A stretch of DNA of 64,000 nucleotides from Cytophagales bacterium (GCA_020627945.1 JAHDFW010000003.1:7599-71598), one strand, 5' to 3'; shown: positions 14,614 to 52,402, numbered from the stretch's first letter. The notes: generated by a model not told the origin, from the letters alone. Numbers and translations are program-made.

Positions 14614-14621
14614 CAAACCTA
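14614..14621 (-). promoter_or_regulatory. Candidate internal -7 box (TAGGTTTG on the - strand) in the 40-nt gap between the two large - strand genes
   Basis: The + strand reads CAAACCTA, 31 nt upstream of the 14583 start and immediately after the upstream stop codon (14624-14626). Confidence 0.25.
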
Positions 14622-14623
14622 AT

Positions 14624-30545: not shown

Positions 30546-30609
30546 CAATAATGTAGAATCAACGTAAAAATTTAGGATTATTATACGCAAACTTTGTTAT
30601 TTTGTTCGA

Positions 30610-32585: not shown

Positions 32586-35500
32586 ATGGGTCTATTAAGA
32601 GCATTAAGCATTGAAAAAGGTGAGGGTACATCTGTAGCTCTCATGATGGCGCAGTCATTTTTTCTGGGAGCGTTCATTATGACATTTCAGATTAGTGCTA
32701 ACGCCATGTTCTTGAAAGAGGTAGGTGGAGATTCACTTACGCTCGCATATTTGATATCTGGGATAATGGGTATGACCCTAACCTTGATTTTTTCTTTCCT
32801 CCAAAAACGAATTCCGTTTAGAATCCTTGCAATTGCGACATATTTAATTGTTGCTGTGTCCACGATCGGGCTTTGGTGGAGTTTTCATTATCATATTTTT
32901 TCCGATTATCACCTGGTATACTTTGTGTTCTTGATTGTAGGACCATTTATAGCGTTGGTAGCCTATATCACCTTCTGGGGTGTAATGGGTAGGATTTTTA
33001 ACCTAAAACAAGCTAAACGATTATTTGGTTTAATTGACTCTGGACAGATTCTAGCGATGATTCTGGTCTCTTTCGCAATCCCATTTTTAACTAACATTCT
33101 TCCAAATACAAAAGATTTGGTTCTCATAAGTGGGGCAAGTCTAGCAGTTGCGTTTTTTATTCAAATCATAGTTTCGTTTAAATATGGTTCTGAATTCGAT
33201 GCGGCCGAAAAAGCTAGCTCCGATGATGGTGGTGGTAGTGCTTCCGAAGCTAAAATTTCAAAATATCTGAAGAACCCATACATCGTGATGATGGCGCTAT
33301 TCGTTTTTATTTCGATGCTAGTGCAGTTTTTTGTTGAGTTCTCCTTCATGAAAACTGTAAACAATCAATATCCGGGGGAGCATGAATTAACAAACTTTTT
33401 CGGTTTCTTCATGGGTACATTACTGATTTTCAGTTTTGTATTTAAATCTTTCCTTTATGGTAAACTAATCCAAATGTATGGATTGAAGGTGAACCTACTT
33501 ATTTTGCCGATTGTATTAGTTTTCTTTACCGTTATTGCTGCCATAATGGGAACTTTAGACAGTTACGAAGGAGCTCCAAATACTTTCGTACTCTTCTTTA
33601 TGTTCATAATCTCCAGTAAGTTATTCGCACAATCTCTTAGGGTTTCAATTGAGGTTCCTGCGTTCAAAACTTTCTACCAACCACTGGATCGCGGGATCCG
33701 ATTCGATGTACAATCGAGAATTGATGGGTTCGTAAATGAGTTGTCAGCAACACTTGGAGGAGCTATTTTATGGATACTAGAATTGGCTGGTTTCAAATTA
33801 ATTCACTTTTCATGGCTATTGATTCCAATTATTGGCCTTTGGGCATATCTGACATTTAGACTTTATGATCGTTACCAAATCACTCTACGTGAATCTCTTT
33901 CCAACATTAAATCTGGTTTAAACAATGCGGGGGCTAAAGTAGCCCAAATGTTAGGTATTTCATCACTTCTTCAAAATCAAATATCTGCCTCAGATAAAGG
34001 TGATGCAATAAATGCCATTAAAATATCGAATCAACTCTCACCTGTATTGTACCTAGAGGCCCTTACACAGTCTTTGGAATCAAACAACACTGAGATAAGA
34101 AGTTTTGCCGCACAACAGCTAAACGCTAATAACGAATTTAGAACACTAAATACCGTCAAGGACAAAGTAGAATCGGAAAATCAAGAAGGAATTCGTTCTG
34201 AACTTTTTCATTTGATGGAAGAAGCTAATCAATATTCGAATAACAAAATCGATGACACCAGATTAATCAGAATGGCTCGCTCAAAGAAGAAGCAGGACAG
34301 AATTAATCTTTGCAAAATTTTAACTCTAGAGGCTTATAAAGAAAATAGAGGGATTTTGGCAGAACTGTTGCGTGACGTAGATCCGAAAGTACGTAAAGAG
34401 GCAATTATGTCTGTGGTTAAATTGAAAGAAGAAGAGTTATACCTTCCGATGATTGACAATTTGGCTAAAAATGAATACCGAAATAGTACTATTCATGCGA
34501 TTCTAGCACTGGGTAAAGATATATTAGAAGCACTTAACACCTCATTTTACAAAGCAGGTTTTAATGGTGATACACTAGTGTTAGTTGTCGATTTAATTGG
34601 AGAAATAAACGGAGAGAAGAGTCAGGATTATCTTGAAGAAAAACTTACCGTACCCGATATGCAAGTGGTAGATGCTGTAATGATTGCTCTACACAAATGT
34701 GGATATCAAGCTTCTGAAGAACAAAAAGGGAAAATTATTCAAGCTATTGATGACACAATTGGGGTAACCATGTGGAACTTCGCTTCATCAATTGAGGCAA
34801 AAAAACATAAATTAGGTCAGGATCTATCAGAAGCTATTAACCTTGAAATCAAGAGTAATTTTGATCATATATTTTTACTTCTGGGGTTAATCTATGATAC
34901 TCAGTCAATTAAACACATCAAGCAAAATATTGAAAGTGGAACAGCTGAGGGAATTAGTTTCGCCATTGAGTTGCTGGATATCTTTGTAGATGAACAATTA
35001 AAACAAAAGCTCTTCCCTATTTTAGATGATATTACGCCTGAAGAAAAGGTAAGTATACTGCAACCTTTTTATCCAAGGTTTGAATTAACTAAGGAAGAAT
35101 CCTTAAAAAGCATATTAAATCGAAGTTACACAGAAATTAACCGTTGGTCTCGAATTTGCGCGATCCAAAGTTATAAGGAGATGGAAAATGGAGCTATTTC
35201 CGACGATTTAGTGGCTCATATTTTCAACCCTGATTATGGTATCAGAGAAGCTGCAGGTTTAGCATTAAGGAAAATAGATCTTAAAAAATATCGCGAAGTA
35301 AGCTATAGATTAGAAGATCATGAAAGAGTTGAATTGAATGAAAAAGTTAATGACATTGAGCAGGGGAATGCATTAAGTATTTTTGAATTGGTGAAGATGC
35401 TTTTAGAAATTCCGGCACTATCTAACTGCTCGGGAAATCATTTGGTAGATCTAGCTGAACATATGAATCAGATGATTTATTTAGAAGGAGATGCAGTTCT

Positions 35501-35828
35501 AAGTTTGACCGAAAATGACAACAAGGATTTCTTAAAGGTAATCTGGAAAGGAAAAGTAAGCATTAAAGATACAGAAGGCAACCTGTTGAATTCATTCAAA
35601 CAGGGGGAAATATTCAGTAGCTATCAATTACAAGATTACCAAGGTAAGGGAGAGCTAAAAATGATTTGTGAACAAAACACCTCCGTTTATTCTTTAGATG
35701 GAGCTTATTTGTACCAACTACTAGTCGAAAATGACAAGTTAGCCAACGCAGTTCTACAAGTGTTAAACGGAAATGGGAAACTGGACAGCGACATAAAGAA
35801 TAATAATTTAGAATCAGTAGTCAGTTAA
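32586..35828 (+). CDS. Polytopic MFS-fold (ATP/ADP-translocase/TLC-like) membrane domain fused to HEAT repeats and a C-terminal cyclic-nucleotide-binding-like domain
   Basis: 1080 aa.
- The first 430 aa or so hold about a dozen hydrophobic segments, with an N-terminus like TLC/MFS-HEAT proteins.
- HEAT-like units include LLRDVDPKVRKEAIMSVVKL and NPDYGIREAAGLALRKI.
- The C-terminal beta-roll is IPALSNCSGNHLVDLAEHMNQMIYLEGDAVL...KGKVSIKD...FKQGEIFS.
- It lacks the R-[ST]-A phosphate-binding motif. Confidence 0.6.
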   Translation: MGLLRALSIEKGEGTSVALMMAQSFFLGAFIMTFQISANAMFLKEVGGDSLTLAYLISGIMGMTLTLIFSFLQKRIPFRILAIATYLIVAVSTIGLWWSFHYHIFSDYHLVYFVFLIVGPFIALVAYITFWGVMGRIFNLKQAKRLFGLIDSGQILAMILVSFAIPFLTNILPNTKDLVLISGASLAVAFFIQIIVSFKYGSEFDAAEKASSDDGGGSASEAKISKYLKNPYIVMMALFVFISMLVQFFVEFSFMKTVNNQYPGEHELTNFFGFFMGTLLIFSFVFKSFLYGKLIQMYGLKVNLLILPIVLVFFTVIAAIMGTLDSYEGAPNTFVLFFMFIISSKLFAQSLRVSIEVPAFKTFYQPLDRGIRFDVQSRIDGFVNELSATLGGAILWILELAGFKLIHFSWLLIPIIGLWAYLTFRLYDRYQITLRESLSNIKSGLNNAGAKVAQMLGISSLLQNQISASDKGDAINAIKISNQLSPVLYLEALTQSLESNNTEIRSFAAQQLNANNEFRTLNTVKDKVESENQEGIRSELFHLMEEANQYSNNKIDDTRLIRMARSKKKQDRINLCKILTLEAYKENRGILAELLRDVDPKVRKEAIMSVVKLKEEELYLPMIDNLAKNEYRNSTIHAILALGKDILEALNTSFYKAGFNGDTLVLVVDLIGEINGEKSQDYLEEKLTVPDMQVVDAVMIALHKCGYQASEEQKGKIIQAIDDTIGVTMWNFASSIEAKKHKLGQDLSEAINLEIKSNFDHIFLLLGLIYDTQSIKHIKQNIESGTAEGISFAIELLDIFVDEQLKQKLFPILDDITPEEKVSILQPFYPRFELTKEESLKSILNRSYTEINRWSRICAIQSYKEMENGAISDDLVAHIFNPDYGIREAAGLALRKIDLKKYREVSYRLEDHERVELNEKVNDIEQGNALSIFELVKMLLEIPALSNCSGNHLVDLAEHMNQMIYLEGDAVLSLTENDNKDFLKVIWKGKVSIKDTEGNLLNSFKQGEIFSSYQLQDYQGKGELKMICEQNTSVYSLDGAYLYQLLVENDKLANAVLQVLNGNGKLDSDIKNNNLESVVS

Positions 35829-35836: not shown

Positions 35837-37789
35837 ATGAAAAGAACTACCATATTTAGTCAGCTGATTGTAAATATCATTATTCCAGTAACGATAGCTT
35901 TAGTAATCCTTGCTGTATTCTTTTTCCTGACGATTAAGTCCTTTATGCAGGCTAAAAATGTCACCAATAATAAGAATATCTCCAAGGAAATAAAAACGGT
36001 AATGAGATTCCAGGATTTATCGTTAAGTATGGTTGAAGAGGAACTAGGAGAAAAAATGCTTAGTGTAACTTCTCGATTGGTTAACGATTATTTTCTTATC
36101 ACGGATAGCATCGAACATGCTGATTTGAAAAAACTACAAAAGGAATTGAATATGGTTCCTGGACAGGAAGACATATATATCATTAATTTAGATGGTAAAA
36201 TTGTCAATTCTACTTTCGAAGATGACATTGGTTTTGAGTTTTTCAGTCTTGGAGAGAAGTATAAGCAATTTTTGCTTAATGTATTTAATGATGGACGATT
36301 TCATATGGATCGATTCTCACCTGAGGCTAAAACTAACAAACTTAAAAAATACTCATATAGGGCCACACAGGATGGGAAATACATTATTGAACTTGGCTTT
36401 TATTCTGAAAGTGCAAATCATGTGGTCAATCAAGCACGACGGGAAATAAACGGGTTGGATAGTGGGCATGCAAGTATTGAAAAAGTTGACCTGTTTTTTG
36501 GTAGTGAAAACCCTGTTTGTTTTAGTAATCCAGATGAAAAAATTAACGAAGAAAACATAAAAATATATCAAAGGGCATTGGAGAAAAAATCCAATATGGA
36601 ATTTGATAGGAACGACCTTCATTACGAATTCATTTATTTCTACCAGAGTAAATCTGAACTTTTCAAGCATGGAGTAATTCGTATTGTGTCTGATCGTAGC
36701 GCTGATAAAAAATCCTTAATCAGTCAATTAACATTGCTCTTAGTGATATTTGGTGCAGTTGTTATGATAGTATTCTTCCTTATTATTCGACGCTCAAAAG
36801 CGATTAGTAACCCTATCAAAAACCTGGCTACTAGCGTTACAAACATTTCTGATGGAGACCTAAGTGCTCGTACTGAAGTAGTAGGTAACAATGAGATCAC
36901 TACCCTATCTGAACAGTTTAACGAAATGCTTGAACGACTTCAGAAATCACATGATAGTCTAGAGCAAAAAGTAATAGAAAGAACAGCAGAAATCTTTACA
37001 CAAAAAGAGAAGATCGAAGCTCAAAACCATCAGATTACAGATAGTATAAGATATGCGAAACGTATTCAAACCGCTATCCTACCTTCCGATGAAGTACTAG
37101 AAAACAATATCAAGCAACACTTTGTTCTATTTAAACCTAGAGACATTGTAAGTGGTGATTTTTATTGGACTGGAAAACGTGATGGATTAGCCATTATTGT
37201 AGCTGCTGATTGTACTGGACACGGAGTCCCTGGAGCATTTATGAGTATGATTGGTAATACACTTCTAAATCAGATCGTAAACGAAAGAGGAATTACTAAA
37301 CCAAGTGATATCCTTTGGAATATGAGAAAGGAAATTCTTAACCTTCTTTCTCAAAAAGGAAGTAAAGCAGTAACAAAAAATAAAGATGGAATGGATATGT
37401 CCATCTGTACCATCAATTACGATACCCTAGAGGTGCAATATTCTGGTGCGAATAATCCTTTGTTCTACATAAGAGATGAAAAACTTACCGTAATTAAAGG
37501 AAGTCGCCAACCTGTAGGATCTCATATACTGGAAAATGAACCATTCGAAAACCACGAGCTTCAAATGAAGCCTGGAGATCGTATGTATATTTTCAGTGAT
37601 GGTTACCAAGACCAATACGGTGGAGATGAAAATAGGAAATTCATGGTAGGTCGTTTAAAGCGATTCTTCGTGGAAATCCATAAAAAGCCATTAGGTACTC
37701 AAAAAGAAATAATGAATCAGACCATCGAAGAATGGATGGCTGATAAAAAACAAATTGACGATATTCTAGTAATAGGAATTAAACTTTAG
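35837..37789 (+). CDS. Membrane sensor phosphatase: TM - Cache-like periplasmic domain - TM - HAMP - coiled coil - PP2C/SpoIIE phosphatase
   Basis: 650 aa. Two TM helices (IVNIIIPVTIALVILAVFFFL and LTLLLVIFGAVVMIVFFLII). HAMP segment PIKNLATSVTNISDGDLSARTEV...LSEQFNEMLERL. SpoIIE core SGDFYW ... AADCTGHGVPGAFMSM ... DGMDM ... SDGYQDQ ... DDILVIGIKL. Confidence 0.8.
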   Translation: MKRTTIFSQLIVNIIIPVTIALVILAVFFFLTIKSFMQAKNVTNNKNISKEIKTVMRFQDLSLSMVEEELGEKMLSVTSRLVNDYFLITDSIEHADLKKLQKELNMVPGQEDIYIINLDGKIVNSTFEDDIGFEFFSLGEKYKQFLLNVFNDGRFHMDRFSPEAKTNKLKKYSYRATQDGKYIIELGFYSESANHVVNQARREINGLDSGHASIEKVDLFFGSENPVCFSNPDEKINEENIKIYQRALEKKSNMEFDRNDLHYEFIYFYQSKSELFKHGVIRIVSDRSADKKSLISQLTLLLVIFGAVVMIVFFLIIRRSKAISNPIKNLATSVTNISDGDLSARTEVVGNNEITTLSEQFNEMLERLQKSHDSLEQKVIERTAEIFTQKEKIEAQNHQITDSIRYAKRIQTAILPSDEVLENNIKQHFVLFKPRDIVSGDFYWTGKRDGLAIIVAADCTGHGVPGAFMSMIGNTLLNQIVNERGITKPSDILWNMRKEILNLLSQKGSKAVTKNKDGMDMSICTINYDTLEVQYSGANNPLFYIRDEKLTVIKGSRQPVGSHILENEPFENHELQMKPGDRMYIFSDGYQDQYGGDENRKFMVGRLKRFFVEIHKKPLGTQKEIMNQTIEEWMADKKQIDDILVIGIKL

Positions 37790-37792: not shown

Positions 37793-39280
37793 ATGAAATA
37801 TCAATACGACGCGTATATAAGTTTCTCAGATCGAGATAACATCGAATCCGAAGGATATGAAGGCTGGGTAACCAACTTCAATAAATTCTTAACCTCGGTG
37901 CTTACTCAGTTATTAAATAGAGAACCTAAAATAGTTCTTTCTTCGGAAAGAGAAGCGGCTAAGAAAGAACATGGTTATACAACTGAAGAACTGTTGAAAA
38001 ACACAGGAGCATTTGTTTCGGTTCTTTCAGACAATTACATACAAGACGAAAAATCACTAGATGAATTAGAATTATTTAATAAGCATCACCAGGAAAAAAT
38101 TAGGTTTTTCGAAGAAAGTGAACAACAAGAAGGTACTGGTTTATTTAAAGCCGTGAAAAGCCCTATTGATAGAGCTCAGCAACCCGATGCTATTAAGTCT
38201 CTATTGTCTTTCGATTTTTTTAGGTTTGATTCGGAGCAAAACACATTTGAAGAACTTGTTTCATATTTCGACTCATCAGCAAAGAAAACTTACTGGCTCA
38301 GTTTGGTTGATCTTGCTTACCACATATATTATGTAGTAAGTGATCAAGAAAGAGTTGTAGACTCAGGTCGAACTGTTTACTTGGCCGAAACCACACCTGA
38401 CCAATCACCATATCGTAACATTATAAAGCGTGAATTAGAAAGTCATGGGTTTAAGGTCCTACCAAGTTCCCCGCTTAATGTTAACTCCAATGAAATTGAA
38501 AACGAAATTAAGAATTATCTTAAGCAAAGCTCGTTAGCGATTCACATTATGGGAGAGCAATATGGAAATCACATTGGGGTTTCTGAGTATTCACTTCCTG
38601 AAATTCAAAATATGGTCGCAGCTGAATATTGCGAAGAAAATAATAAAAAAGAGGCGTTCATACCTTTCGAAAGATTGATTTGGATTTCACCAATTCTTAA
38701 TGTGCAAGATGAAAAACAAAAGGTATACCTAAGCCAATTGAAAAAGGATATTGATAGCCTTTCGGACGCCGAAATCGTTCAGACTCCTTTGGCTGTTTTT
38801 AAATCAATCGCATATAATAAGGCTAATCAGGATATAAATAACCTGAAAAGAAAACTGGCCCAAAAAGCAAATAACCAGAAAAAGTCGGTGTATCTGGTAC
38901 ACGGTAAGGAAGATTTACAAGCTGTAGCACCGCTAAAAGATTGGGTAACCAAAAATGGACTAGATCTTATTCCTTCAATTTTTGAAGGAGACCAATTTGA
39001 TCTTGTTCATAAACATCGTAATAACCTAGCCCAATGTGATGGTGTAATCATCTATTACGCTCATTACAATGAACAATGGGTTAGAATTAAACTAAGGGAT
39101 TTAATTAAAGCACCTGGATTTGGTAGAAAGAGTCCATTGGATACAACCGCTATTTACATGGGATTAGAAGATTCTAATGTAAAAGAACTGAGTGTAGACC
39201 AAGGATTGATCGTAATTGAAAATGAAGGTGATTTTAAATCTCATTTGATGGAAGAATTCCTTAACGACTTACTGAACTGA
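37793..39280 (+). CDS. Cytoplasmic protein with an N-terminal TIR-like domain and two further TIR/flavodoxin-like (DUF4062-like) modules
   Basis: 495 aa with no signal peptide or TM segment.
- Module 1: YDAYISFSDRDN ... GAFVSVLSDNYIQDEKSLDELELF, a TIR beta-A / beta-D-alpha pattern with E91 in the position of the conserved TIR glutamate.
- Module 2: TVYLAETTPDQSPYRNIIKRELESHGFKVLP ... LAIHIMG.
- Module 3: SVYLVHGKEDLQAVAPLKDWVTKNGLDLIP ... CDGVIIYYA. Confidence 0.6.
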   Translation: MKYQYDAYISFSDRDNIESEGYEGWVTNFNKFLTSVLTQLLNREPKIVLSSEREAAKKEHGYTTEELLKNTGAFVSVLSDNYIQDEKSLDELELFNKHHQEKIRFFEESEQQEGTGLFKAVKSPIDRAQQPDAIKSLLSFDFFRFDSEQNTFEELVSYFDSSAKKTYWLSLVDLAYHIYYVVSDQERVVDSGRTVYLAETTPDQSPYRNIIKRELESHGFKVLPSSPLNVNSNEIENEIKNYLKQSSLAIHIMGEQYGNHIGVSEYSLPEIQNMVAAEYCEENNKKEAFIPFERLIWISPILNVQDEKQKVYLSQLKKDIDSLSDAEIVQTPLAVFKSIAYNKANQDINNLKRKLAQKANNQKKSVYLVHGKEDLQAVAPLKDWVTKNGLDLIPSIFEGDQFDLVHKHRNNLAQCDGVIIYYAHYNEQWVRIKLRDLIKAPGFGRKSPLDTTAIYMGLEDSNVKELSVDQGLIVIENEGDFKSHLMEEFLNDLLN

Positions 39281-39290: not shown

Positions 39291-42200
39291 ATGGCTGAAG
39301 CAACTCAAATAAGGCAAAAAAGTCGCAAGCGTGTAAAGTTTAATCCGTTTCCAGGGTTACGCCCATTTACCGTAAATGAAAGTCACTTGTTTTTTGGAAG
39401 AGAAGGACAGAGTGATGAGGTACTTAAAAAGCTTGCTGAAAATAAATTTACTGCTGTAATTGGAGCATCTGGATCTGGTAAATCTTCGCTTATGTACTGT
39501 GGAGTGATACCTACGGTATATGGAGGTTTTATTTCTAAAGCTGGTGATAGTTGGAGAATGGTTGTAACACGACCAGGTAATGCTCCTATTGACAATCTAG
39601 CTAAGGCAATTGTGGAAAGTGAACCAGATCATGAAGGTGGTTCAGAAGAAAAGCTTCGAATTCAACGTACTATGAACTCCGCAATTTTGCGTTCTAGTTC
39701 AAAAGGTTTGGTAGAAGCACTACGTCAAGTAAACCAGAAGCGAAAGCAAAACATATTACTTCTTATAGATCAGTTCGAGGAGTTATTTCGTTTTAAGAAA
39801 AGTGCGGAAAATGTAGATTCTGCCAATGAATCAGCGGAATTTGTTCGCTTATTTTTAGAAGCAGCCAACCAAAGTGAAGTGCCTATTTATGTGGTACTAA
39901 CAATGCGTTCAGATTTTATTGGGGACTGTGCTCAATTCCCTAGTCTTACGGAAAAAATTAATGACAGTCACTACTTGATTCCGCAGATGACCCGTAACGA
40001 TATGCAAAATGCTATTGAAGGGCCTGTCGCAGTAGGTGGTGGTAAAATTTCTCCTCATTTGGTTCAGCAATTGCTCAATGAGGTCGGAGATAACCCAGAT
40101 CAACTTCCCATTCTTCAGCATGCCCTTATGAGAACATGGGATGCTTGGGAAAATTCTATCGAAGATGAAGCCATGATCAATATTGATCATTATGACTCCA
40201 TTGGTAGAATGGAAAAAGCACTTTCCAATCACGCCAACGAAGCATATGACGAACTAAGTGAAGGTGGTAAACGAATTTGCGAAAACCTCTTTAAGACACT
40301 AACTGAAAAAGGTGGTGATAATAGAGGGATTCGTAGACCAACTGCCCTTCTCACCGTTGCGGACATTTGTCATGCACCAATGGACGAGGTGAAAGAAGTA
40401 GTTGAAAAATTTAGAGTTGCTGGAAGATCATTCTTAGCACCATCTTCAAGTGTAAAACTTGAATCTGATACTATAGTCGATATTTCTCACGAAAGTTTGA
40501 TGAGAATTTGGGATCGTCTTATTGTTTGGGTAGATGAGGAAGCAACGGCAGTAAATACATACGTTAGAATTGCCGACGCAGCTGCACTCTATCAAGTCGG
40601 AAAAGCAAGCTTATGGAGACCACCAGATTTGCAGCTTGCACTGAATTGGAAAGAAAAGAAAGAGCCTACCTTAAAATGGGCCGAACGGTATGATCCGTCT
40701 TTTGAAAGAGCAATGGTATTCCTTCAAACCAGTAAGGATACTTATGAAGCTGAAGAAAGGAATAAAATTTTACAACAAAAACGAGCTCTAAAACGCTCCA
40801 GAATTGTTGCAATTGTACTTGGTACAGCCGCAGTAATAGCACTTTTCCTTACACTTTGGGCTTTTATACAACAGCAAAAAGCCGAGGAAAAAGAGAAAGA
40901 AGCTCTTGAAGCAAAAGCTAATGCCGAGGTAAAAGAAAAAGAAGCAAACCTTGCTAAGGAAGACGCTCTTAAGCAAAAAGCTATTGCAGAGGAAAAGGAG
41001 CAAGAAGCTCTTGTACAAAAAGCTTTAGCGGATTCTGCTAAAGTGTTGGCCGAATTATCTGCCGCTGAAGCACTTCGACAAAAAGGGATTGCACTTCAAA
41101 AAGAGAAAGAAGCGAATCGTCAGAAAGTTATTGCTGAGGAAAAAGAGGCGGAAGCACAAAAACAGAAAACCTTAGCGGAGCAAAAGGAGAAAGAGGCAAT
41201 TGCGGCACAGTTAGAAGCGGATAAACTGCGAATGCTTTCGATTTCTAAAGCGATGGCTATTAAATCTGCTCAAATGCGAAGAGATACCACTCGTAAAGCA
41301 TTATTGGCTTACCAATCTTACATATTTAATGATGAATATAAAGGTGAAGAACACAATGCCGATGTTTATGATGGTCTTTATTCAACTCTTAAATCTTTGA
41401 ATCAAGAAGAATACAATAGTCTGGAGGGACATACGGATGCTATTCGTGCTTTGAACTTTTCAAATGAAGGTACTTTGTATTCAACTGGTAGTGATGGTAA
41501 AATTATGGCTTGGGATACGGAGTCATCAACTTCTCCATTTAAAACAGTTTATAGTGATGATAAAATCAAAAGAACTATGGTTGTGAGCCCAGACAACAAA
41601 AGTCTGGCAGTTGGTGATGAAAGTTCAAATATTAAGTTAGTGAACATTGCAAGTGGTGACGCTTCTGAATTAAAAGACCACACTAAAGCAGTTTGGGCAT
41701 TAACTTACGACAAAGAAGGGAACCTATATAGTACCTCTGCAGATTCAACTTTGAGAGTATGGAACAATGGAACTTCTAAAATTCTTACCAACGGTCAGTT
41801 GATTAGAACCGTATCAGTGTATGGAGATAATATCGCTTGTGGACAAATGAACTCCAAATTAACTATTTGGAACAAGAGCAACGGTTCTCTGGTTAAGAGT
41901 TTAGACGAGGCTTCACCTGTATATTCTGTGGCTTACAGCCCAGATGGGAAATTACTCGCTTGTGGAGATCTTCAAGGTAATATTAAAATTTACGACTCTA
42001 AATCGTATGAGTTAATAACTAGTTTACGTGGACACACTGCAAGGGTACATGAGATTGAGTTTAGCCAAGATGGATCTCAAATGGCAACTGCTAGTTTCGA
42101 CAAAACGGTATTACTTTGGAAAACTGCCGACTTCAACGTGACTCCAATAAGTATGAGAGATCATGAAGGTTGGGTAGTAACAATGGCTTTTAGTCCTGAT

Positions 42201-42407
42201 GGCACTAAACTTATCGCAGGTTGTATTGACAATGTAATTCGAGTTTGGCCTACTGATATTAAGAGTATGGCAGAACAAATTTGCGAAAAACTTAAGAGAA
42301 ACATGACTCAGAAGGAATGGGAAAAATATGTAGCTAAAGATATTCCTTACGAAAAAACATGTGACGCTCTTCCTGTAGGTGAAGGAGTAAAACCAGAAAA
42401 CGAATAA
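39291..42407 (+). CDS. STAND-type P-loop NTPase (nSTAND1-like) - single TM helix - ~120-residue coiled coil - seven WD40 repeats
   Basis: 1038 aa.
- N-terminus FNPFPGLRPFTVNESHLFFGREGQSDEVLKKL.
- Walker A GASGSGKSS (39462-39488) and Walker B-like LLLIDQFEELF.
- TM helix IVAIVLGTAAVIALFLTLWAFI (40803-40868), preceded by KRALKRSR.
- KEKEA-rich heptad region at about 40869-41250.
- Seven GH/WD-type blades at 41424-42251.
- C-terminal tail RNMTQKEWEKYV..PYEKTC, typical of STAND-WD40 proteins. Confidence 0.75.
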   Translation: MAEATQIRQKSRKRVKFNPFPGLRPFTVNESHLFFGREGQSDEVLKKLAENKFTAVIGASGSGKSSLMYCGVIPTVYGGFISKAGDSWRMVVTRPGNAPIDNLAKAIVESEPDHEGGSEEKLRIQRTMNSAILRSSSKGLVEALRQVNQKRKQNILLLIDQFEELFRFKKSAENVDSANESAEFVRLFLEAANQSEVPIYVVLTMRSDFIGDCAQFPSLTEKINDSHYLIPQMTRNDMQNAIEGPVAVGGGKISPHLVQQLLNEVGDNPDQLPILQHALMRTWDAWENSIEDEAMINIDHYDSIGRMEKALSNHANEAYDELSEGGKRICENLFKTLTEKGGDNRGIRRPTALLTVADICHAPMDEVKEVVEKFRVAGRSFLAPSSSVKLESDTIVDISHESLMRIWDRLIVWVDEEATAVNTYVRIADAAALYQVGKASLWRPPDLQLALNWKEKKEPTLKWAERYDPSFERAMVFLQTSKDTYEAEERNKILQQKRALKRSRIVAIVLGTAAVIALFLTLWAFIQQQKAEEKEKEALEAKANAEVKEKEANLAKEDALKQKAIAEEKEQEALVQKALADSAKVLAELSAAEALRQKGIALQKEKEANRQKVIAEEKEAEAQKQKTLAEQKEKEAIAAQLEADKLRMLSISKAMAIKSAQMRRDTTRKALLAYQSYIFNDEYKGEEHNADVYDGLYSTLKSLNQEEYNSLEGHTDAIRALNFSNEGTLYSTGSDGKIMAWDTESSTSPFKTVYSDDKIKRTMVVSPDNKSLAVGDESSNIKLVNIASGDASELKDHTKAVWALTYDKEGNLYSTSADSTLRVWNNGTSKILTNGQLIRTVSVYGDNIACGQMNSKLTIWNKSNGSLVKSLDEASPVYSVAYSPDGKLLACGDLQGNIKIYDSKSYELITSLRGHTARVHEIEFSQDGSQMATASFDKTVLLWKTADFNVTPISMRDHEGWVVTMAFSPDGTKLIAGCIDNVIRVWPTDIKSMAEQICEKLKRNMTQKEWEKYVAKDIPYEKTCDALPVGEGVKPENE

Positions 42408-42489: not shown

Positions 42490-43542
42490 ATGGTAATACT
42501 TGTGTTTTTATGCACAACAGGATTCTTGTTTTCGTTGCAAACTTCAGCTCAAGAAGATTGCTCTGAAAAACTAAAAAATGCAGAAGCTAGTTACGAAGGA
42601 GGAAACATTGAAAATGTTGAATCTATTGTAACAGGGTGTCTAGATAATGGCGGGTTCAGTAAGGCAGAAAGAGAAGAAGCTTATAAACTACTTACTCTTG
42701 TTGGTCTTTTTGAAGATGATTTCCCAAAGGCTGAGTCCAACATGACTAAACTCCTTAACTCAAATCCGGATTTTAAACCTAAACCATCGGACCCTATTGA
42801 GTTAAAGAAATTGTATGATCTATTTAGAATTGACCCGGTATTAACATTTGGACTACGCTTAGGATTAAATAGTAGTTACACTACACTTCTAAGATACTAT
42901 TCCGTTGAAAATTCAACCGATTTAAGTGATGGATTTATTTCTTCTGGATTAGGATTTCAAATTTCTGGAGCATTAAATGTTCGTATTGCTGGAGGTCTTT
43001 ATGCAACGTTAGAGCCTGGCTATACGTCAGTTAACTTTGTAGACCTAGGTACTAGTTTATATGACAGTGCCAACATTGTGGGCTTTACTGAAACTATGAC
43101 CAAAATGGGACTTTCAGGTGGTTTTAGTAATGAATTTAACAGATACAAGTCTATAAAACCTACTTTGGAAGCAGGTGCAGGGATTTTCAGACTTATTAGT
43201 TCGGACACGAAAATTACTCGAGATTATTTAGATGAAAGTGGAAGTGCTAGTGTTCAAGAGTCGGAAATCAACCTAAATGCGAATCGTGCAAACACCATGT
43301 TTAACCTATACTATGGTGCTGAGGTGAAATTCAAAGCAGGAAGTAGAGGAAACATTGTGATTGGAGTAAGACATAATATCGGATTGACCAACATTACCTC
43401 ATCAAGGTACAACGACAATCTAATGTATAGATACTATCATATACTGGATGACATGACTCAAAACTCCATAATGTTCAGAGTTGGGTACTTGCAATCAGTG
43501 TATAGACCAAAAATATTGAAAAGAAAATTAAAGCAACAATAA
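42490..43542 (+). CDS. Outer-membrane beta-barrel protein (OMP_b-brl_2/PorT-like pattern) with an N-terminal TPR-like helical segment
   Basis: Start chosen at MVILVFLCTTGFLFSLQTSAQE, a signal peptide; the track start is a TTG at 42415. Helical region AEREEAYKLLTLVGLFEDDFPKAESNMTKLL. After that come alternating-hydrophobic beta strands, ending in an aromatic-rich C-terminal strand region FRVGYLQSVY. Confidence 0.55.
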   Translation: MVILVFLCTTGFLFSLQTSAQEDCSEKLKNAEASYEGGNIENVESIVTGCLDNGGFSKAEREEAYKLLTLVGLFEDDFPKAESNMTKLLNSNPDFKPKPSDPIELKKLYDLFRIDPVLTFGLRLGLNSSYTTLLRYYSVENSTDLSDGFISSGLGFQISGALNVRIAGGLYATLEPGYTSVNFVDLGTSLYDSANIVGFTETMTKMGLSGGFSNEFNRYKSIKPTLEAGAGIFRLISSDTKITRDYLDESGSASVQESEINLNANRANTMFNLYYGAEVKFKAGSRGNIVIGVRHNIGLTNITSSRYNDNLMYRYYHILDDMTQNSIMFRVGYLQSVYRPKILKRKLKQQ

Positions 43543-44819
43543 TGAAAAAATACTTAGTAATTACAGTATTAGCCATTAGCATTTTTGCATGCCGTGAAAA
43601 AGGTGATCCTTTTGAGCCAGTAAGTTCTAAAAAGTTTGTGAAGTTATATGGAAAATCAAAGGTGGATGTAGCCTATGACCTCTTGCAAACCTCAGATGGA
43701 GGTTACATTATGGCAGGAGGTGTAATGGATTTCTATGGAGCTAAATATACAGGAGACCACCAGTTTTACGTAGTAAAAACAAGCCCATATGGAAACATTG
43801 AATGGGAAGTATCTCTTGGGGATAGTCTAATGAATGATACCGCCAAAGCCATTCATATTACTCCAGAAGGAGATTATATTGTTGCAGGTACTAAATCAAT
43901 TAATGACACAATAAATGGTGTACATAGTAACATGTACGTTGTCAAAATCGACCAAAGTGGCAATATAATATGGGAAAATGATCAAATTGGAAGTGCAGGG
44001 ATTAATGAAACATGTAATGCTTTTACCGCTATTGCCGATGGATATGTGTTGGTTGGAAGTACAGATGCTGCCAGCACTACAGTGGATAGTACAGTTATTG
44101 TCAACCAGTCAGGGACTAAAGATCAGTATTTGATAAGAATTGATTTAGATGGCCAAGTGGTCCCTTTTGGTACTGCACAACATGGAGGTTTTGCTAATGA
44201 TGAGTATGTAGATTGCCTCTTGAGATTTACGGCTGGAGAATATAGAGTGATTCTATTAGGCAGTGGAGTTTCTAATTTTGGAGATGAGGATATTACCATT
44301 ACAACTAAGAAAGTATCGGATTTAGCGGGACCAACGGATTTTGATGTTCCCACTAATGACGAACACAACGATATTCCAGGTAAACTTTACGATGCTGGAG
44401 ATTTCATTATGATGATAGGTACTGATGGACTAGGAGGCTCTTCAGCATCCAAGCTAGTTAACTATCAATTTAATGGTAAAGATTTGATCACTGCAGGGTT
44501 TGATACCATTATTACTTCCAATAATTGGACGAGTACATTTGGTAACTCTGTAGTAAAAGCTTGGGACAACTCAAGTTATATAATGCTAAGTACAGGAGTA
44601 CAAGGCGATAATTCTGGGATTCTCGCAAATATAGTGAGTATCAATGGAGCAGAACTTGATCCATATTTCCAAAATCAGGAATATGGATTAGGTGTAAATG
44701 AAGGTGTTAAAATCATCCGTACTTCAGACTTTGGATATGCTATTTTAGGCAATACCAGGTTTGGAGCTGATCAGAAGTTTCTGTTTATAAAAATGGATGA
44801 ATTTGGAAACATTGAATAA
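43542..44819 (+). CDS. Lipoprotein with repeated beta-propeller-like units
   Basis: Lipobox LAISIFAC. The repeated unit is (S/P/A)DGGYI..G.....(hydrophobic)VVK(I/T)...G.I.WE. The start codon overlaps the upstream stop (TAATG at 43540-43544). Confidence 0.6.
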   Translation: MKKYLVITVLAISIFACREKGDPFEPVSSKKFVKLYGKSKVDVAYDLLQTSDGGYIMAGGVMDFYGAKYTGDHQFYVVKTSPYGNIEWEVSLGDSLMNDTAKAIHITPEGDYIVAGTKSINDTINGVHSNMYVVKIDQSGNIIWENDQIGSAGINETCNAFTAIADGYVLVGSTDAASTTVDSTVIVNQSGTKDQYLIRIDLDGQVVPFGTAQHGGFANDEYVDCLLRFTAGEYRVILLGSGVSNFGDEDITITTKKVSDLAGPTDFDVPTNDEHNDIPGKLYDAGDFIMMIGTDGLGGSSASKLVNYQFNGKDLITAGFDTIITSNNWTSTFGNSVVKAWDNSSYIMLSTGVQGDNSGILANIVSINGAELDPYFQNQEYGLGVNEGVKIIRTSDFGYAILGNTRFGADQKFLFIKMDEFGNIE

Positions 44820-44883
44820 TAACTGGTAGAAGGTATATTCTTTTTACCTAAAATATAATCAACAAGTTGAAAACGTGTCAGTT

Positions 44884-47800
44884 ATGGGGATATTTAGAAA
44901 AATCGTAACGGGTGTAACTATGGCTTTAGCAGCCTTTCAGTTTACTCAAGCTCAAACTTATGCTACCCTACCATATCAAGATGATTTTGAATCAGGTCTT
45001 GGTACAGAGTGGACTACAACTGTTCCAGCATCAGCCAACGTGATTACTACCGGAATGGGTACACCATACGAAGGTTTGAATCATTTATTAATTGATGATG
45101 GAACTGCAGGTGGAACTAACACTAAAATAGCAGCCCTACATGTAAACCTTTCCAATGGTTCAGAATACACATTATCCTTCTTCATGAAGGATTTTGGAGA
45201 TGAAGATGATCTAGTTGACGGTATATACTTTTCAGACTCTGCTTCAAAAGCAGCGATTAAAGTACACTCCTTTACTCCTTCCACAATCACAGACAATGTT
45301 TGGCAAGAGGTAGTTATTGATATTGACGAATTAGCAGCCGCAAATGGTCTTAATTTAACCGATAGCTTTAGAATCGAGTTTCATGAATCTGATGACAGGG
45401 AGTGGAATAATTCTACCCCAGGAGACCCAGATGGTTTCGCATTTGACCTAATGGAAATCTACCCTACACCTACTATGACTTCTGGCTCGATTAGCGGAAC
45501 AGATACAATATGCTTCGACAGTACAGGAACTTCTACTATCACATTGACGGAAGCAAGTCCTTCATTATATGGGGAAGGGAATATAGTTTACGAGTGGCAA
45601 AGCACTTCTAATCTCTTTACCTGGGATTCAGTAACAACTTCTTCTGGCACAGACACAACTTGGCCTGCACCATTAGTTACAACTCTATATAGACGTTGTG
45701 CAATAACCGACCAAGGACAAGGTCCAGCCTGTAGTACTCCAATCTTAATTACCGTAACTCCTGAAGAAAATGCGCAAATACTTGGTTTAGCCGCTTCTTA
45801 TGCAAATACAGATGGTGCTCAAACAATTTTTGGTAGTCCAATAATAGGGCTTTTCACAGGTACAGGAATATTAGATAATGCCGATGGAACTGCGACCCTA
45901 GATGTTTCTTCTGGAGGTTTAGGCAACCGAACTATCACATATACATACACAGATCCATTTGGCTGTCCTTATACTAAAGACAGTGTAACTAATATTATTC
46001 TTGGAAACTCAGTAATCTATAAACCAGCACCTTACACCATGGATTTCGAATCGTTCCCAGGTTGGACTGGTGCCACTGAATGGCGTAGAGATAACACTAA
46101 TCCACGCGTAGAAGTAAATGCTGATGCAACACCTTATGAAGGAGCTGCTTGTTTAATTATGGACGATGATAATACGGGAAGCACAACAGAATTTACGCGT
46201 TCAGCGACTCTTCATGTTGATCTTTCTTTATTCTCCGATTACACACTGGAGTTCTATATGAAAGACTTTCAAGATGAAGACCATCCCGAAGACGGAGTTT
46301 TTATTTCTACTAAAACTAGTGGTGGATTTCAAAAGATTTTTGATTTTGCACCTACAACTAGAGCAGACGGTGCATGGGCAAAATATTCCATTGATCTAGA
46401 TGTAGCTGCAGCTACCGTAGGTACAACTTTGGATGATAGTGTACAGATCATGTTTCAAGAAAAAGATCAATTTAGATTCGATGAAAGTACTACTGATGGT
46501 ATTGCTTTGGATTCAATAGTTATTTTTACTTCCCTTCCATTAACGGCAGGAAGTATTAATGGTAGTGATACCCTTTGTTTCGCAACAACAGATACAGGCT
46601 CTGTCGTAATTACAAACAGTGCTTCTCCAACGAATGGTGAACCACCTTATTCTTATACATGGGAAAGCTCACAAGATTTATTAAGCTGGTCAAACGTTGG
46701 AAGCTCCTCTACACCAGATACAACCATTGATGCTCCTTCGGCAAGCACTTATTACAGAAGATGCGTTAGCACCTCAAGCGAAGGTCCTATTTGTACTTCA
46801 CCGATCTTCATTCGTGTGGAACAAGAACCAACCGTATTCTTAAACATTGTGGATACTGCTCTTTGCGAAAATGAACCTTCTGCTTTAATTACAGGTATTC
46901 CTACCAGTCCAGATGGTACATTTAATTCGTATACGGGATTGACTGACAATAATAATGGTACAGCTTCCTTAGATCCTGTTGTATCTGGCACTGGCTCTTT
47001 CCAAACTATTTATAGTTATACCAATTATTTTGGCTGTACTGCAAGTGATACTATTACCATGGAGGTCCTAGGCACACCTACGGTTTCATTTTCAGGTCTC
47101 TCTGCTACTTCTGCGACAACAGATCCTCCACAAACTTTAACGGGTTCTCCACCTGGAGGAGTATTCGAAGGTTTGGGAGTCTCTGGTAATGCGTTCTATC
47201 CAGCTATTGCTCCTACCGATACGTCCTTTAATATTACATATACTTATTCAGATGCTAACGGATGTACCAATACATCTAGCCCTCAAACAGTCGTTGTTAC
47301 CACTGGTAGTTCAGGAGCTATTTCTTCTAGCTTATTAAACAGTTATTGTGCTGACTTCCCTAATGAAGTGGAATTTAAGGGTACAGCACCTCCTGGTTGG
47401 TCTGCTGTTGGATTTACTTTACGATCAAATGGTGTAGCTTCGACTAACGGATTCACACCTAACGGGCTTGATTCCGCGGTATTTGAGCCTAATTTAGCTG
47501 ATCTTGGTACTACAATTGAAATTGTATTCAAGTATAGCCAAACCTATGACTGTAATCCATTCCCGTGTAACCCTTATAGCTGTAACCCTTATATATGTAA
47601 TCCATACCAATGTAATCCATACCCTTGTATTACAGGTTTTACCCCAATAGGTCTTCCAATATTTGGAACCTGCTACAGTACTTGTTGGAATTTGTGTTTC
47701 AAAACTTGCTATAACACTTGCTATAACACCTGTACCAGATATGATTCTACAGTTGTTACAACTACGGTTTACGATCTTCCAAATGTAAACTTCACAAATC

Positions 47801-50800
47801 TTTCGGGTCAATATTGCAAAAATGATGCTCCTTTCGCACTTGAAGGAAACTTTAGCAACACAGGGTTTGCTAGCTCGGTTCCTTCTGCATTAACTGGAAG
47901 TACGTTTGATCCAGGTGATTTAAGTATTGGTAGTTCAGTAGACCTTTCTTATACGTTTACTGATGGAAATTCTTGTACAAACTCTGATACCGTTACAGTC
48001 ACGATTGACTCTGTGCCAGTAGTGAATTTTAGTGGCATGACGGCCGTAGATTCTACTTGTCCTAACAAAGCTAAAAATGTATTCATAGGAAACATCCCTT
48101 CAAGCGGTGCTTTTAATACTACTACAGGATTGGTTAATACTACTCCAGGTCAAGCGGAATTTGATCCTTCTACTCCAAGCCTTCCTGCTACAACCAATAT
48201 TGAATATTATTATATCGATGGTAATGGATGTCGTGGTAGTATTACCAAGCAAATGAAGTTACATCCTTTACCAGTAATTCAATTCTTCGGCCTTAACCCT
48301 CAACGGTCGTATTGTGTAGATGCAACTAGCGTGCTTCTCTCTGGTAGTGAATCTCCCCAAGGAACTTTCTTTGGAGAGGGAATTGGTGTTGTTGATTTAG
48401 GTAATGGTACGGCAAACTTTATTCCTAGTAGTTATCAGGCAGATAGCTCGTATACCATTTCATATGAATACACAGATGGTAACACTTGTACGGATACTGC
48501 TTCTTCTACTGTTTACATTAGACCTCTCCCAACAGTTGAAATTCTAGGCTTACCAGATTATGTTTGTGAGTCAGATGCACCTTTATCTCTGAATGCCACT
48601 CCAGCTTCTGGTCAAGTAACTACATTCTCAGGCCCTGGAGTAAGTGGAACAACATTTACACCTGCAAATGCCAATGTTGGAACTATAGACACAATCCAAT
48701 ACGATTATACTGAATTTGGAATTATTGGTGTGACAGCTTGTTCGAATACGGCTATTGATACTATTGAAATTAAGGCATTACCAGTTGTTACCATTTCAAG
48801 TTTAGATACAGCGTATTGTACCGATGAACCAGCTGATACTATTTTTGGAACACCAGCAAATGGAACCTTCTCTGGAGCAAGTATCATTGACTTCCTAGAT
48901 GGTTCGGCTACAATCAGCCCAATCCCACTTACCGAACGAAATACTTACGAAATCATTTACAAATATTCGGATGGATTTGGTTGTACAAACTGGGATACTG
49001 GATATACTTACATCGACACTTTACCCGTAGTATCATTTACTGGATTGGTAAATAACGTCTTAACAAATTCAAACTATTATTGTGAGGATCATGCCATATC
49101 TAATTTAGTGGGAAGCCCAGCAGGAGCTGCAGGTGTATTCACCAGTGGATCTTTGGGTCTTATAGATGATGGTGGCGGAAATGCTAGATTTGATCCTACT
49201 TTACCAGTTACAAATGTTTGGGATACGATAAGATATCGTTTCACTGATGGACAAACTTGTACCAGTTTCCAAGATCAATTGGTATACGTACAAAGTTTGC
49301 CAGTAGTTGATATGCTTGGATTAGATTCAGCGTATTGTTCTTCCGATGGACCAGATCCTCTATCAGGAGTACCTGGTGGAGGTGTATTTACAGGTCCTGG
49401 AATTGTATTTAATACTTTTGATCCTGATCCTTCTATCGTAGGTATTGATACCATTGTCTACACGTTCACCGATGCACAAGGATGTGTAAATGATACGTTT
49501 GATGTTACCATTGTGAATGCATTACCTGCAATTCAAATTGATAGTTTAATGGCAGAATATTGTGAAGATGATGAAGTAGACACAATATATTCGAATAAAA
49601 TTGGTGAGACTACTGGTCAATTTACACCTCCAAGTTTGATCTCGGATCAGGGAGATGGTACAGCCATATTTGACCCTTCAATTATTGCTCAAGATAGTAT
49701 TACAATTACATTCACCTATACCGATACAAATTCTTGTGTTAATAGTGTAGACCAAGATGTAGTAATCAATAGACTTCCTACCGTGTTCTTTAATGGTATT
49801 ACCGATGGACAAGTATTGTGTGCTGATCAATCTTTACCTGTTTTACTAATAGGAAATCAAGCGCCTCTAGGAGAGTTCTTAGGAGATTCTCTAATTGAAG
49901 GAATTATAGATAGCACCAATGGTAAAGCTATTTTGAGACCTGATCTTGGTTTAGAAGATACTTTGCTTGATATTACCTATGCTTACATGGATGCTAAAGG
50001 ATGTGTAGACACTTCTACTCTGCAAATTATGTATCGTAGTTTACCTGTTATTAGTTATTCTGGTTTAGATACGGTTTACTGCTATGATGATGCTTTCTCT
50101 CCTTTAGTAGTTACTTCCAACCAATTAGGAACTACTCTTTTTGAAGGAGAAGGTGTTGCTGCACTAACATATAATCCTGCTCTGGTAGAAACTAAAAACT
50201 TATTGGATCCAATAACAAGATCGTATTACGATACCGTGACACTTACATTTACCAATTCAGATGGCTGTTATACTATAGATACTCAGTATACTAGAGTATT
50301 GGATTTACCTACCGCAAGTTTTGGCATCTCTGGATACTGTAATAATGATACGATATACTTCTCCGATTCTTCCACCGTTTCGATTTACGATTCTATTGTT
50401 GCGTGGGAATGGAATTATGACAATGGAGACCCTGTAAATGACTTTATTCAGAATGGACAAGAATGGTATGAAAACCCAGGAGAATATAGAATTGAACTTA
50501 CAGTTTACACTCATGAAGGGTGTACGCATACTGGAATTGTGGATACCGTGATAGGCGCTCCTCCTATTGTTGATTTTGCTTGGGATAACATCTGCTTTGG
50601 AGATACCATTCAATTCTCTGATTCTTCCATGGATGTATCAGTAGATACTATGGTTGCATGGAATTGGAATTTTGGCGATGGAAATATTTCTAATTTACAA
50701 AACCCAACGCACCAATATGATTCTTTGCTAAGTTACCCAGTTACACTAGTGGTTACTACAAACCATAACTGTGTAGATTCTCTTACCAGAATATTAGATA

Positions 50801-52359: not shown

Positions 52360-52402
52360 TAAAAACTTACGGCTATAGAAGAAGACCTAAGCAAGACATA
52401 TT

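Follow-up and report, generated by a model that had tools for sequence, protein, structure and literature searches.

An nSTAND1 NTPase of a Cytophagales bacterium with a conserved membrane helix and a heptad-quantised stalk, predicted to hold its WD40 propeller in the periplasm

Bacterial STAND/NLR-like proteins are currently viewed as cytosolic receptors that bind invader proteins directly and whose repeat domain autoinhibits the NTPase by contact. We analysed a stretch of 64,000 nt from a Cytophagales bacterium (GCA_020627945.1, JAHDFW010000003.1:7599-71598), hereafter the window, which encodes at positions 39291-42407 a STAND NTPase with C-terminal WD40 repeats. A preliminary description, made from the sequence alone, had proposed that a membrane helix and a long stalk separate these two parts, so that the ATPase would lie in the cytoplasm and the propeller outside it. 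Is this protein indeed built across the inner membrane and, if so, how could a STAND switch be operated when its repeat domain lies on the other side of that membrane?

The product of the open reading frame (ORF) matches the Pfam families nSTAND1 (E = 1.9e-97) and WD40 (E = 1.4e-41), along with further beta-propeller families. Its AlphaFold model has a mean predicted local distance difference test score (pLDDT) of 75.7, and the top PDB matches of this model in Foldseek are full-length Apaf-1 chains (E = 1.5e-16), followed by WD40 propellers. Sequence and model together describe the product as an Apaf-1-like STAND NTPase in which a predicted membrane helix and a rod are placed between the nucleotide-binding oligomerisation domain (NOD) and the propeller. 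It is a genuine member of nSTAND1, with only 18 residues ahead of the NTPase and no fused N-terminal effector or adaptor. Every feature named in the preliminary description was recovered where it had been placed, and its reading of the 1038-aa ORF as a STAND NTPase is confirmed by the match to the nSTAND1 model PF20703.

This match covers residues 19-436 and scores 327.8 bits against a cut-off of 27.1. The Walker A motif GASGSGKSS occupies residues 58-66 (nt 39462-39488), as already read from the sequence, and the Walker B motif LLLIDQFEE residues 156-164. In two family alignments (A1 and A2) the columns of G58, K64, S65, D160, E163, E164, R206 and H400 are invariant; the NTPase thus keeps both Arg206 and His400, the latter within an ISHESL motif. 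AlphaFold is confident over residues 40-470, in agreement with a NOD of the Apaf-1 type (an NTPase core with helical and winged-helix domains), and Apaf-1 heads the Foldseek list for the whole model. Residues 19-470 would form an ATP-binding oligomerisation module, predicted to be cytoplasmic.

The membrane helix was examined by hydropathy and charge statistics, which were used in place of dedicated topology predictors. The hydrophobic segment, IVAIVLGTAAVIALFLTLWAFI, is 22 residues long and reaches a Kyte-Doolittle maximum of 2.56. The sole 19-residue windows with a mean of at least 1.4 are those at 499-510; the N-terminus of the protein is hydrophilic and the Kyte-Doolittle scan gave no N-terminal signal peptide, as had been expected. 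The summed insertion free energy (Hessa-type) of the best 19-mer is -2.74 kcal/mol, as compared to at least +7.3 kcal/mol elsewhere in the protein, and this sum is negative in 273 of 299 homologues. Hydropathy and insertion energy thus agree with the single helix at 505-526, preceded by KRALKRSR, that the preliminary description had pointed out. The 15 residues before the helix contain seven K/R and no D/E, and the 15 residues after it three K/R and five D/E. Over 244 homologues, the corresponding flanks average 6.5 K+R with a net charge of +4.8 before the helix, and 2.7 with a net charge of +0.1 after it. The N-terminal flank is the richer in K/R in 234 of these 244 proteins, so that the positive-inside argument made earlier for one protein applies to the family.

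We gathered homologues by an exhaustive HMMER search with residues 1-480; the cluster representatives found numbered 42,248 with E <= 1e-3, of which 9,490 had E <= 1e-30. In all 149 top representatives that were retrieved (at least 50% identity in the NTPase), one hydrophobic helix lies 440-460 residues past Walker A, and practically every one of the 120 closest proteins of sufficient length has it too. A scan of a genome collection with the single protein yielded four loci, all close orthologues, and a metagenome scan with an alignment widened the sample. The 85 genomic and metagenomic loci fetched in this way span 30-70% GC, and all 85 encode the helix. Ten distant plasmid homologues (23-37% identity) come from Streptomyces, Rhodococcus, Nostoc, Microchaete, Gloeothece, Acaryochloris, Planktothrix and Caballeronia. 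Nine of them have the helix at the equivalent place, each time after an Arg/Lys-rich cluster, and the tenth is truncated by an insertion sequence. The position of the membrane helix is conserved far beyond chance, and the helix is seen in every sufficiently long homologue sampled. In this sampling it is the norm of nSTAND1 proteins across phyla and not a local insertion. The contrast with an all-cytoplasmic STAND model, drawn in the preliminary description, accordingly stands with respect to the characterised cytosolic STAND/Avs proteins; the family survey shows, on the other hand, that the helix is no special insertion of the window protein. Many database homologues of about 520-590 aa end just past the helix; these are mostly partial assemblies.

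What follows the helix varies within the family, and includes one to three WD40 propellers, TPR arrays, a PPC domain (in a cyanobacterial member), an RDD membrane domain and DUF4350. The most informative member is Streptomyces WP_266773705.1, where a caspase domain, nSTAND1 (E = 2e-121) and the membrane helix are followed by SBP_bac_3 (E = 4e-11, above the Pfam cut-off). SBP_bac_3 is an extracellular solute-binding family, and this protein is therefore the strongest independent support for a C-terminus outside the cytoplasm. In ten divergent loci we found no domain specific to the extracytoplasmic space after the helix, only WD40 and TPR repeats, which do not tell one compartment from another. 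Taken together, a single span, the positive-inside bias and an ATP-dependent N-terminal module without signal peptide predict a cytoplasmic N-terminus and a periplasmic C-terminus. An N-in/C-out topology with a periplasmic propeller is thus supported, as a prediction from sequence. To call the WD40 domain the "sensor", as was done previously, is an assumption that presupposes the direction of signalling.

Some homologues with particular layouts are recorded here in their own right. A 1138-aa protein from a Logan contig (P0121) contains two complete nSTAND1 modules with four hydrophobic helices between them and a fifth helix at its end; the even number fits real membrane helices, and we gave no weight to this short single contig with an odd C-terminus. 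Another protein (P0109) combines nSTAND1 with a weak match to a type IX secretion (T9SS) sorting domain and was not used as evidence. In a 4.8-Mb contig (L005), the orthologue P0036 (11400-12100) is called as two genes, with one in-frame stop seven codons past the membrane helix; the stalk runs on in the same frame, and a pseudogene, a sequencing error or read-through are possible. On plasmids of Microchaete (L092), Gloeothece (L091) and Streptomyces (L093), distant nSTAND1-membrane helix proteins carry an N-terminal caspase or trypsin domain. Small genes of the "CU044_2847 family" precede these three proteins and could correspond to the EACC1 component of Kaur et al. 2020. A distinct gene, for an ABC substrate-binding protein, overlaps the 3' end in Gloeothece.

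In the window protein, the membrane helix is followed by 121 residues rich in A, E, K and Q. In 17 consecutive heptads (531-643) the same position is held by alanine, and A517 and A524, within the membrane helix, fall in that register; the consensus of both family alignments likewise has Ala at each seventh residue. In the AlphaFold model, residues 471-661 form a single unbroken helix that includes the membrane segment. The helical run of about 120 residues proposed earlier is thereby retained, in the form of a heptad rod. A Pfam search with the stalk alone returned nothing meaningful.

We then measured the stalk in 175 homologues, as the distance from the last juxtamembrane K/R to a pre-propeller motif located by a hidden Markov model (HMM). 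Three values dominate: 137 residues, found in 91 sequences; 144, in 34 sequences with the window protein among them; and 151, in 12. Smaller groups lie near 123, 130 and 158. Stalk lengths therefore differ by whole heptads. In the 91 rods of equal length, position a is Ala in 89% of cases, d is Gln (32%), Ala (24%) or Asn (14%), e is Arg/Lys and g is Glu/Leu/Ile. A stalk contains on average 0.01 Pro and 0.77 Gly+Pro, and Gly/Pro stay below 9% in every column. K+R balance D+E, and identity off the Ala position is only about 15%. Fixed length and phase combined with helicity at about 15% identity indicate selection on length, phase and helicity rather than on sequence. The heptad statistics fit a straight, parallel, homo-oligomeric coiled coil with a small polar core, which would be the predicted form of the stalk. 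An antiparallel hairpin (Alacoil) was considered and is less likely, given the single-heptad steps in length, the absence of a conserved Gly/Pro turn and g/e charges that suit a parallel arrangement.

At about 0.15 nm per residue, 121 residues correspond to a rod of about 18 nm. The periplasmic GldM dimer measures about 180 Å and spans most of the periplasm in Flavobacterium (PMC5790014). By comparison, an 18-nm rod with a propeller would be of the right size for the periplasm of Bacteroidota. The estimate that the stalk is on the scale of a periplasm is strengthened by this comparison and by the conservation of length. In distant members from actinobacteria, the membrane helix is followed by no more than a short linker.

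Between stalk and propeller, an HMM built on columns of alignment A1 identified the helical pre-propeller linker used as endpoint above in the 175 homologues. AlphaFold places its helices at residues 666-682 and 690-703 (pLDDT 86-94), and homologues from Streptomyces and Rhodococcus have this motif after their membrane helix as well. Seven WD40 repeats can be read in the sequence, in agreement with the seven blades announced in the preliminary description; Pfam reports five stretches, and AlphaFold six to seven blades with two low-confidence stretches. The strands of the propeller extend over residues 718-979 in the model and match WDR5 and the WD40 domain of PkwA in Foldseek. After the propeller, a helical tail carries the conserved motif C-x5-RN(M/L)(T/S)-x2-EW-x2-(Y/F)...TC, and both cysteines are present in 96 of the 109 homologues with this motif. 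This conserved pair would suit a periplasmic disulfide and could lend weaker support to the predicted topology. A weak NCBIfam match to GltJ over residues 482-706 (E = 0.0028) was attributed to low-complexity similarity and was not used.

The gene belongs to a co-directional block with gene gaps of 3-10 nt (Table 1). A scan of the block for terminators and sigma-70 promoters gave results no better than those from shuffled sequences. Synteny of the seven-gene block is retained in Cytophagales genomes even where the identity of the NTPases is down to about 51%, and in distant high-GC loci only the TIR-like gene and the NTPase gene stay together. The TIR-like gene ends 10 nt upstream of the NTPase gene and lies immediately upstream of it in 51 of 80 loci, mostly with gaps of -3 to +7 nt; on the Caballeronia plasmid, a TIR gene and a hypothetical gene precede the nSTAND1 homologue. 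The family profile of the TIR-like protein matches TIR domains of known structure from plants, animals and bacteria (best E = 5e-5), and no hydrophobic segment was found in its 495 residues. R213, G219, W297, Y367 and W429 are invariant in alignment A5. The catalytic Glu of TIR domains is present in 14 of 14 high-GC partners and in 10 of 28 partners of the Cytophagales type; the window protein has this Glu (SLDEL), and its closest orthologue has Asp. The WC motif is likewise kept in the distant high-GC partners and decayed in most of the Cytophagales partners.

Further upstream, the block is headed by a membrane protein with TLC and HEAT domains and 11 hydrophobic helices, which occupies this place in about 45 of the 85 loci. 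The orthologue in L005 also carries a cyclic-nucleotide-binding (cNMP) domain. The TLC domain resembles ATP/ADP translocases, and it is suggestive that a protein like a nucleotide transporter adjoins a TIR/STAND pair. The gene for a HAMP-PP2C phosphatase, which follows in the window, is found in only a subset of orthologous operons.

Directly downstream of the NTPase gene, in 61 of 75 informative loci, lies a gene for an exported outer-membrane beta-barrel (P375). PF13568/PF13505 are found in its homologues, whose names are PorT, porin or OmpW family. The AlphaFold model (pLDDT 89.7) consists of a TPR-like N-terminal domain of five helices (residues 24-111 of the model) and a barrel; Foldseek matches are OmpA, NspA, OmpT, Ail, OmpX and OmpW, with OmpA, NspA, OmpX and OmpW at E = 1e-7 to 1e-5. 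Two cysteines of the N-terminal domain (C24 and C50 in model numbering) are invariant in alignment A4 and presumably form a periplasmic disulfide. A search with the single sequence gave four relatives, and a profile search gave the annotated homologues. The start of this gene is ambiguous, as the ORF opens at TTG 42415, 8 nt past the stop of the NTPase gene, and a signal peptide is encoded from ATG 42490, the likely start. There is also a weak NCBIfam match to the TssQ lipoprotein family. The next gene encodes a lipoprotein beta-propeller (P425), whose family profile matches the beta-propeller of CylK (E = 1e-33); 9 of 37 members carry DUF5122. Two giant ORFs (44875-52359 and 52403-57184) follow in tandem directly after the operon. 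A giant ORF follows the lipoprotein gene in most loci with enough downstream sequence, the orthologue in L005 reaching 6122 aa.

The rest of the window is ordinary chromosome, with genes for UvrA, a SurA-like protein, lipoamide dehydrogenase, POR, glycosyltransferases and other T9SS substrates. The window as a whole is unusually rich in such substrates: five ORFs have Por_Secre_tail or CHU_C sorting domains, namely the two giant ones and those at 1798-4026, 10528-14652 and 28662-30590. The neighbours are thus of housekeeping type, and a defence-island location was not found in the window. No known defence system in the PADLOC models was matched by the NTPase, the only hits being a match of the WD40 region to HEAT-ARM_XIII and P-loop noise. 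A second nSTAND1 gene was not found in the 64 kb. The uvrA gene (5224-8145) gave a spurious nSTAND1 match of sub-threshold length (E = 2e-8), which covers only the P-loop.

Table 1. Coordinates of the gene, of the parts of its product and of the neighbouring genes in the window
Feature	Position (nt)	Strand	Basis
Gene of the nSTAND1 - membrane helix - stalk - WD40 protein	39291..42407	+	ATG start, 1038 aa; Pfam, AlphaFold/Foldseek
nSTAND1 NTPase module, predicted cytoplasmic	39345..40598	+	Pfam match of residues 19-436; pLDDT 80-94
Juxtamembrane helix, predicted cytoplasmic, residues 471-504, ending in KRALKRSR (497-504)	40701..40802	+	AlphaFold helix 471-535; charge counts
Single predicted transmembrane helix, residues 505-526	40803..40868	+	Hydropathy, insertion energy, conservation
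Stalk of 17 heptads (a = Ala), residues 527-647; predicted coiled-coil rod of ~18 nm across the periplasm	40869..41231	+	Heptads, AlphaFold
Helical pre-propeller linker, residues 648-712	41232..41426	+	A1-column HMM, AlphaFold
Seven-repeat WD40 beta-propeller, residues 713-985, predicted periplasmic	41427..42245	+	Pfam, AlphaFold, Foldseek
C-terminal helical tail with Cys998 and Cys1024	42246..42407	+	Motif C-x5-RNMT-x2-EW...TC
TLC/MFS-like membrane protein with HEAT repeats, 1080 aa, first gene of the block	32586..35828	+	Pfam TLC E 1.7e-6, HEAT_2 E 4.6e-11
HAMP + PP2C (SpoIIE/SiaA-like) sensor phosphatase, two transmembrane helices, accessory	35837..37789	+	Pfam, NCBIfam
TIR + DUF4062 + third flavodoxin-like domain protein, 495 aa, predicted cytoplasmic	37793..39280	+	Pfam TIR_2 E 2.8e-7, DUF4062
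P375, exported outer-membrane beta-barrel with N-terminal five-helix periplasmic domain	42490..43542	+	Pfam of homologues, AlphaFold, Foldseek
P425, lipoprotein beta-propeller	43542..44819	+	Lipobox, invariant Cys17
Giant surface proteins of 2494 and 1593 aa, each with PKD and T9SS sorting domains	44875..57184	+	Pfam PKD_4, Por_Secre_tail

How could these parts work together? In silico we observe which domains are present, one conserved membrane helix with a charge bias across it, a stalk quantised in heptads, and a gene order that is conserved. We consider it probable that these features belong to a trans-envelope signalling switch, that is, an inner-membrane nSTAND1 protein with its ATPase inside and its propeller about 18 nm out on a stalk, which signals by way of an outer complex. 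A continuous helix would leave the NTPase module, cross the membrane once (505-526) and continue as a stalk of 17 heptads and about 18 nm, which would hold the linker and the seven-bladed propeller close to the outer membrane. There the propeller may meet the beta-barrel protein, through its periplasmic helical domain, and the lipoprotein propeller, both possibly linked to the giant T9SS surface proteins. A change in this outer complex would alter the association or the register of the weakly packed stalks, and this in turn could drive or release a nucleotide-dependent assembly of the cytoplasmic NTPase modules. Assembled modules might then engage the co-translated TIR-like protein and, in the Cytophagales lineage, also the PP2C phosphatase and the TLC/HEAT protein. 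With a membrane between sensor and NOD, the autoinhibition by contact that is usual in STAND proteins could not operate; the most economical alternative mode of activation is induced proximity or zippering of the coiled coil. The transmembrane STAND switch with a stalk-mounted periplasmic propeller, as first put forward in the preliminary description, is supported in silico by the helix, the charge bias, the stalk, the SBP_bac_3 member and the neighbouring barrel gene. We infer from these observations the location in the periplasm, an oligomeric stalk, which parts touch each other, which way the signal runs and what its output is.

Several points weigh against this trans-envelope switch. The canonical contact between STAND sensor and NOD is barred by the membrane, so that another logic of activation must be assumed, and the contacts of the propeller with the barrel and the lipoprotein are putative. 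The usual modules after the helix, WD40 and TPR, are those typically found in cytosolic STAND sensors and do not in themselves mark export, and we found no experimental topology of any family member in the literature. AlphaFold confidence is low at residues 520-590 (pLDDT 44-56), in the membrane-proximal part of the stalk, and the Ala/Gln core of the stalk is weak, its oligomeric state being deduced only from heptad statistics. Of the 28 Cytophagales-type partners, 18 have lost the TIR catalytic Glu, and some operons lack the TIR-like gene.

The loss of this residue also speaks for the main rival, in which the same architecture signals inside-out. The NTPase would have its nucleotide state set by the TLC/HEAT protein, by the HAMP-PP2C phosphatase or by the TIR-like protein; this state would reposition the propeller, which would in turn control the barrel and the lipoprotein and thereby the display, anchoring or release of the giant proteins. 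Its logic would be akin to the control of the LapA adhesin by LapD. The synteny of the block down to about 50% identity, next to housekeeping and not defence genes, speaks for such a role, as do the giant surface proteins that follow it in most loci with enough sequence and the proteins of input type, cytoplasmic or of the inner membrane, that are encoded upstream (HAMP-PP2C, and the cNMP domain of the TLC/HEAT orthologue in L005). The wider family, however, pairs the NTPase with the TIR-like gene only, the Glu being kept throughout the high-GC partners, and elsewhere has caspase or trypsin domains at the N-terminus, which is the classic layout from sensor to effector. We also know of no STAND protein that uses its repeat domain as output, and we regard inside-out signalling as rather unlikely, if well worth keeping in mind.

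The topology itself is called into question by two further alternatives. The helix might not be constitutively inserted: the protein would be cytosolic at rest with the helix buried, WD40 would be an ordinary cytoplasmic sensor, and the helix would enter the membrane upon activation as a membrane-damaging effector. Transmembrane helices do act as effectors in several bacterial defence systems, and the repeats found here are those of cytosolic STAND sensors. However, the helix stands between NTPase and sensor and not at the N-terminal position of effectors, it retains the charge pattern of a signal anchor in 234 of 244 homologues, and a Pro-free rod that varies in whole heptads has no role in such a mechanism. 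In one member the helix is followed by an extracellular solute-binding domain, and the downstream genes encode envelope proteins, so that a latent effector seems very improbable. Finally, a fusion, a frameshift or a mis-called ORF could have joined a cytoplasmic NTPase gene to an exported WD40 gene, as might be suggested by the L005 orthologue that is called as two genes. Only one in-frame stop parts the halves there, with the stalk in the same frame, and the homologue survey contradicts an artefact, since a full-length single ORF is found in hundreds of independent assemblies. The chance that the joined ORF is spurious is negligible.

The window protein is ordinary within nSTAND1; it is unusual with respect to the picture of bacterial STAND/NLR-like proteins as cytosolic receptors. 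Database clusters of nSTAND1 number in the tens of thousands and are spread over Bacteroidota, Cyanobacteria, Actinobacteria and Proteobacteria. We tentatively suggest, as a possibility that we hold somewhat short of an even chance, that the class consists of transmembrane receptors and not of cytosolic sensors, in which WD40, TPR or solute-binding modules reading the periplasm or the surface switch, by way of a single helix, the NTPase and its TIR, caspase or trypsin partner. The Cytophagales stalk would then be a molecular ruler to an outer-membrane complex of barrel and lipoprotein tied to the giant T9SS proteins, and surface events would be reported inward. If the topology is correct, a very large STAND family would be activated through one helix, for instance by clustering, zippering or rotation of a coiled coil. 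Bacterial NLR-like switches could then signal across the envelope and not merely sense the cytoplasm, and events at the surface (phage adsorption, contact, damage) could be signalled before entry, which would be a bacterial counterpart of Toll-like-receptor logic. "Immune-type" switches would extend to surveillance of the envelope and surface, tied to giant T9SS proteins whose regulation is poorly understood. With its stalk length in whole heptads and its named candidate partners in the outer membrane, the Cytophagales version is unusually testable.

nSTAND1 (PF20703) was defined from conflict systems of multicellular bacteria (Kaur, Iyer, Burroughs, Aravind 2021, PMC8195603). The text of that paper makes no mention of a membrane helix between NTPase and repeats. 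In our search of the literature, whose coverage is incomplete so that absence is no proof, we found neither a description of the nSTAND1-helix-WD40/TPR topology as a family rule nor one of a heptad-quantised stalk or of a Cytophagales operon with outer-membrane partners. The window protein resembles the family in its NTPase module, which matches the model, in its C-terminal repeat array and in the coupling of its gene to that of a TIR protein; its subfamily differs by the addition of a length-quantised stalk and of outer-membrane partners. It shares with Apaf-1 and bacterial Apaf-1-like STAND-WD40 proteins an NTPase oligomerisation module followed by a WD40 propeller. However, Apaf-1 is soluble and its propellers touch the NOD, whereas a membrane helix and a rod of about 120 residues intervene here, with a single propeller and no CARD.

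A closer precedent for the membrane is the EACC1-caspase two-gene system, which is membrane-associated. Passages of Kaur et al. 2020 (PMC7159879) report transmembrane helices in at least 33% of the caspase-bearing proteins, and describe some caspase proteins with a downstream extracellular periplasmic-binding domain as well as STAND NTPases in the same position. The Streptomyces protein with caspase, nSTAND1, membrane helix and SBP_bac_3 exactly matches such a layout. In contrast, the window contains no EACC1 gene or caspase, and has a TIR/DUF4062 partner, a stalk with WD40 repeats and outer-membrane proteins in the operon. As in Avs and bNACHT systems, a STAND NTPase has a C-terminal repeat domain of the sensor type, and a TIR protein of the effector type is encoded alongside. 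Characterised Avs proteins, however, sense phage proteins in the cytoplasm, whereas the window protein is predicted to span the membrane, has no PADLOC match to Avs or bNACHT and does not lie in a defence island. For some NACHT/C-type-lectin targets diversified by diversity-generating retroelements, the periplasm is among the predicted compartments (Dore et al. 2024, PMC10907252).

Elongated structures anchored in the inner membrane are known from other systems. Domain II of E. coli TolA is alpha-helical (PMC12204202), and the GldM dimer reaches outer-membrane partners (PMC5790014). Like TolA domain II and GldM/PorM, the window protein would have a single N-in membrane helix followed by an elongated structure, its stalk being A/K/E-rich and of similar length. 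There is no sequence relationship to these proteins; a large cytoplasmic NTPase precedes the helix, and no motor of the TolQR/ExbBD type is encoded nearby in the window. Toll-like receptors and bacterial receptor kinases such as PknD offer a similar logic, with an extracytoplasmic repeat domain or propeller, a single helix and a cytoplasmic signalling module in which TIR is involved. The likeness is one of analogy and implies no homology, since the cytoplasmic module is here a STAND NTPase and TIR is a separate protein.

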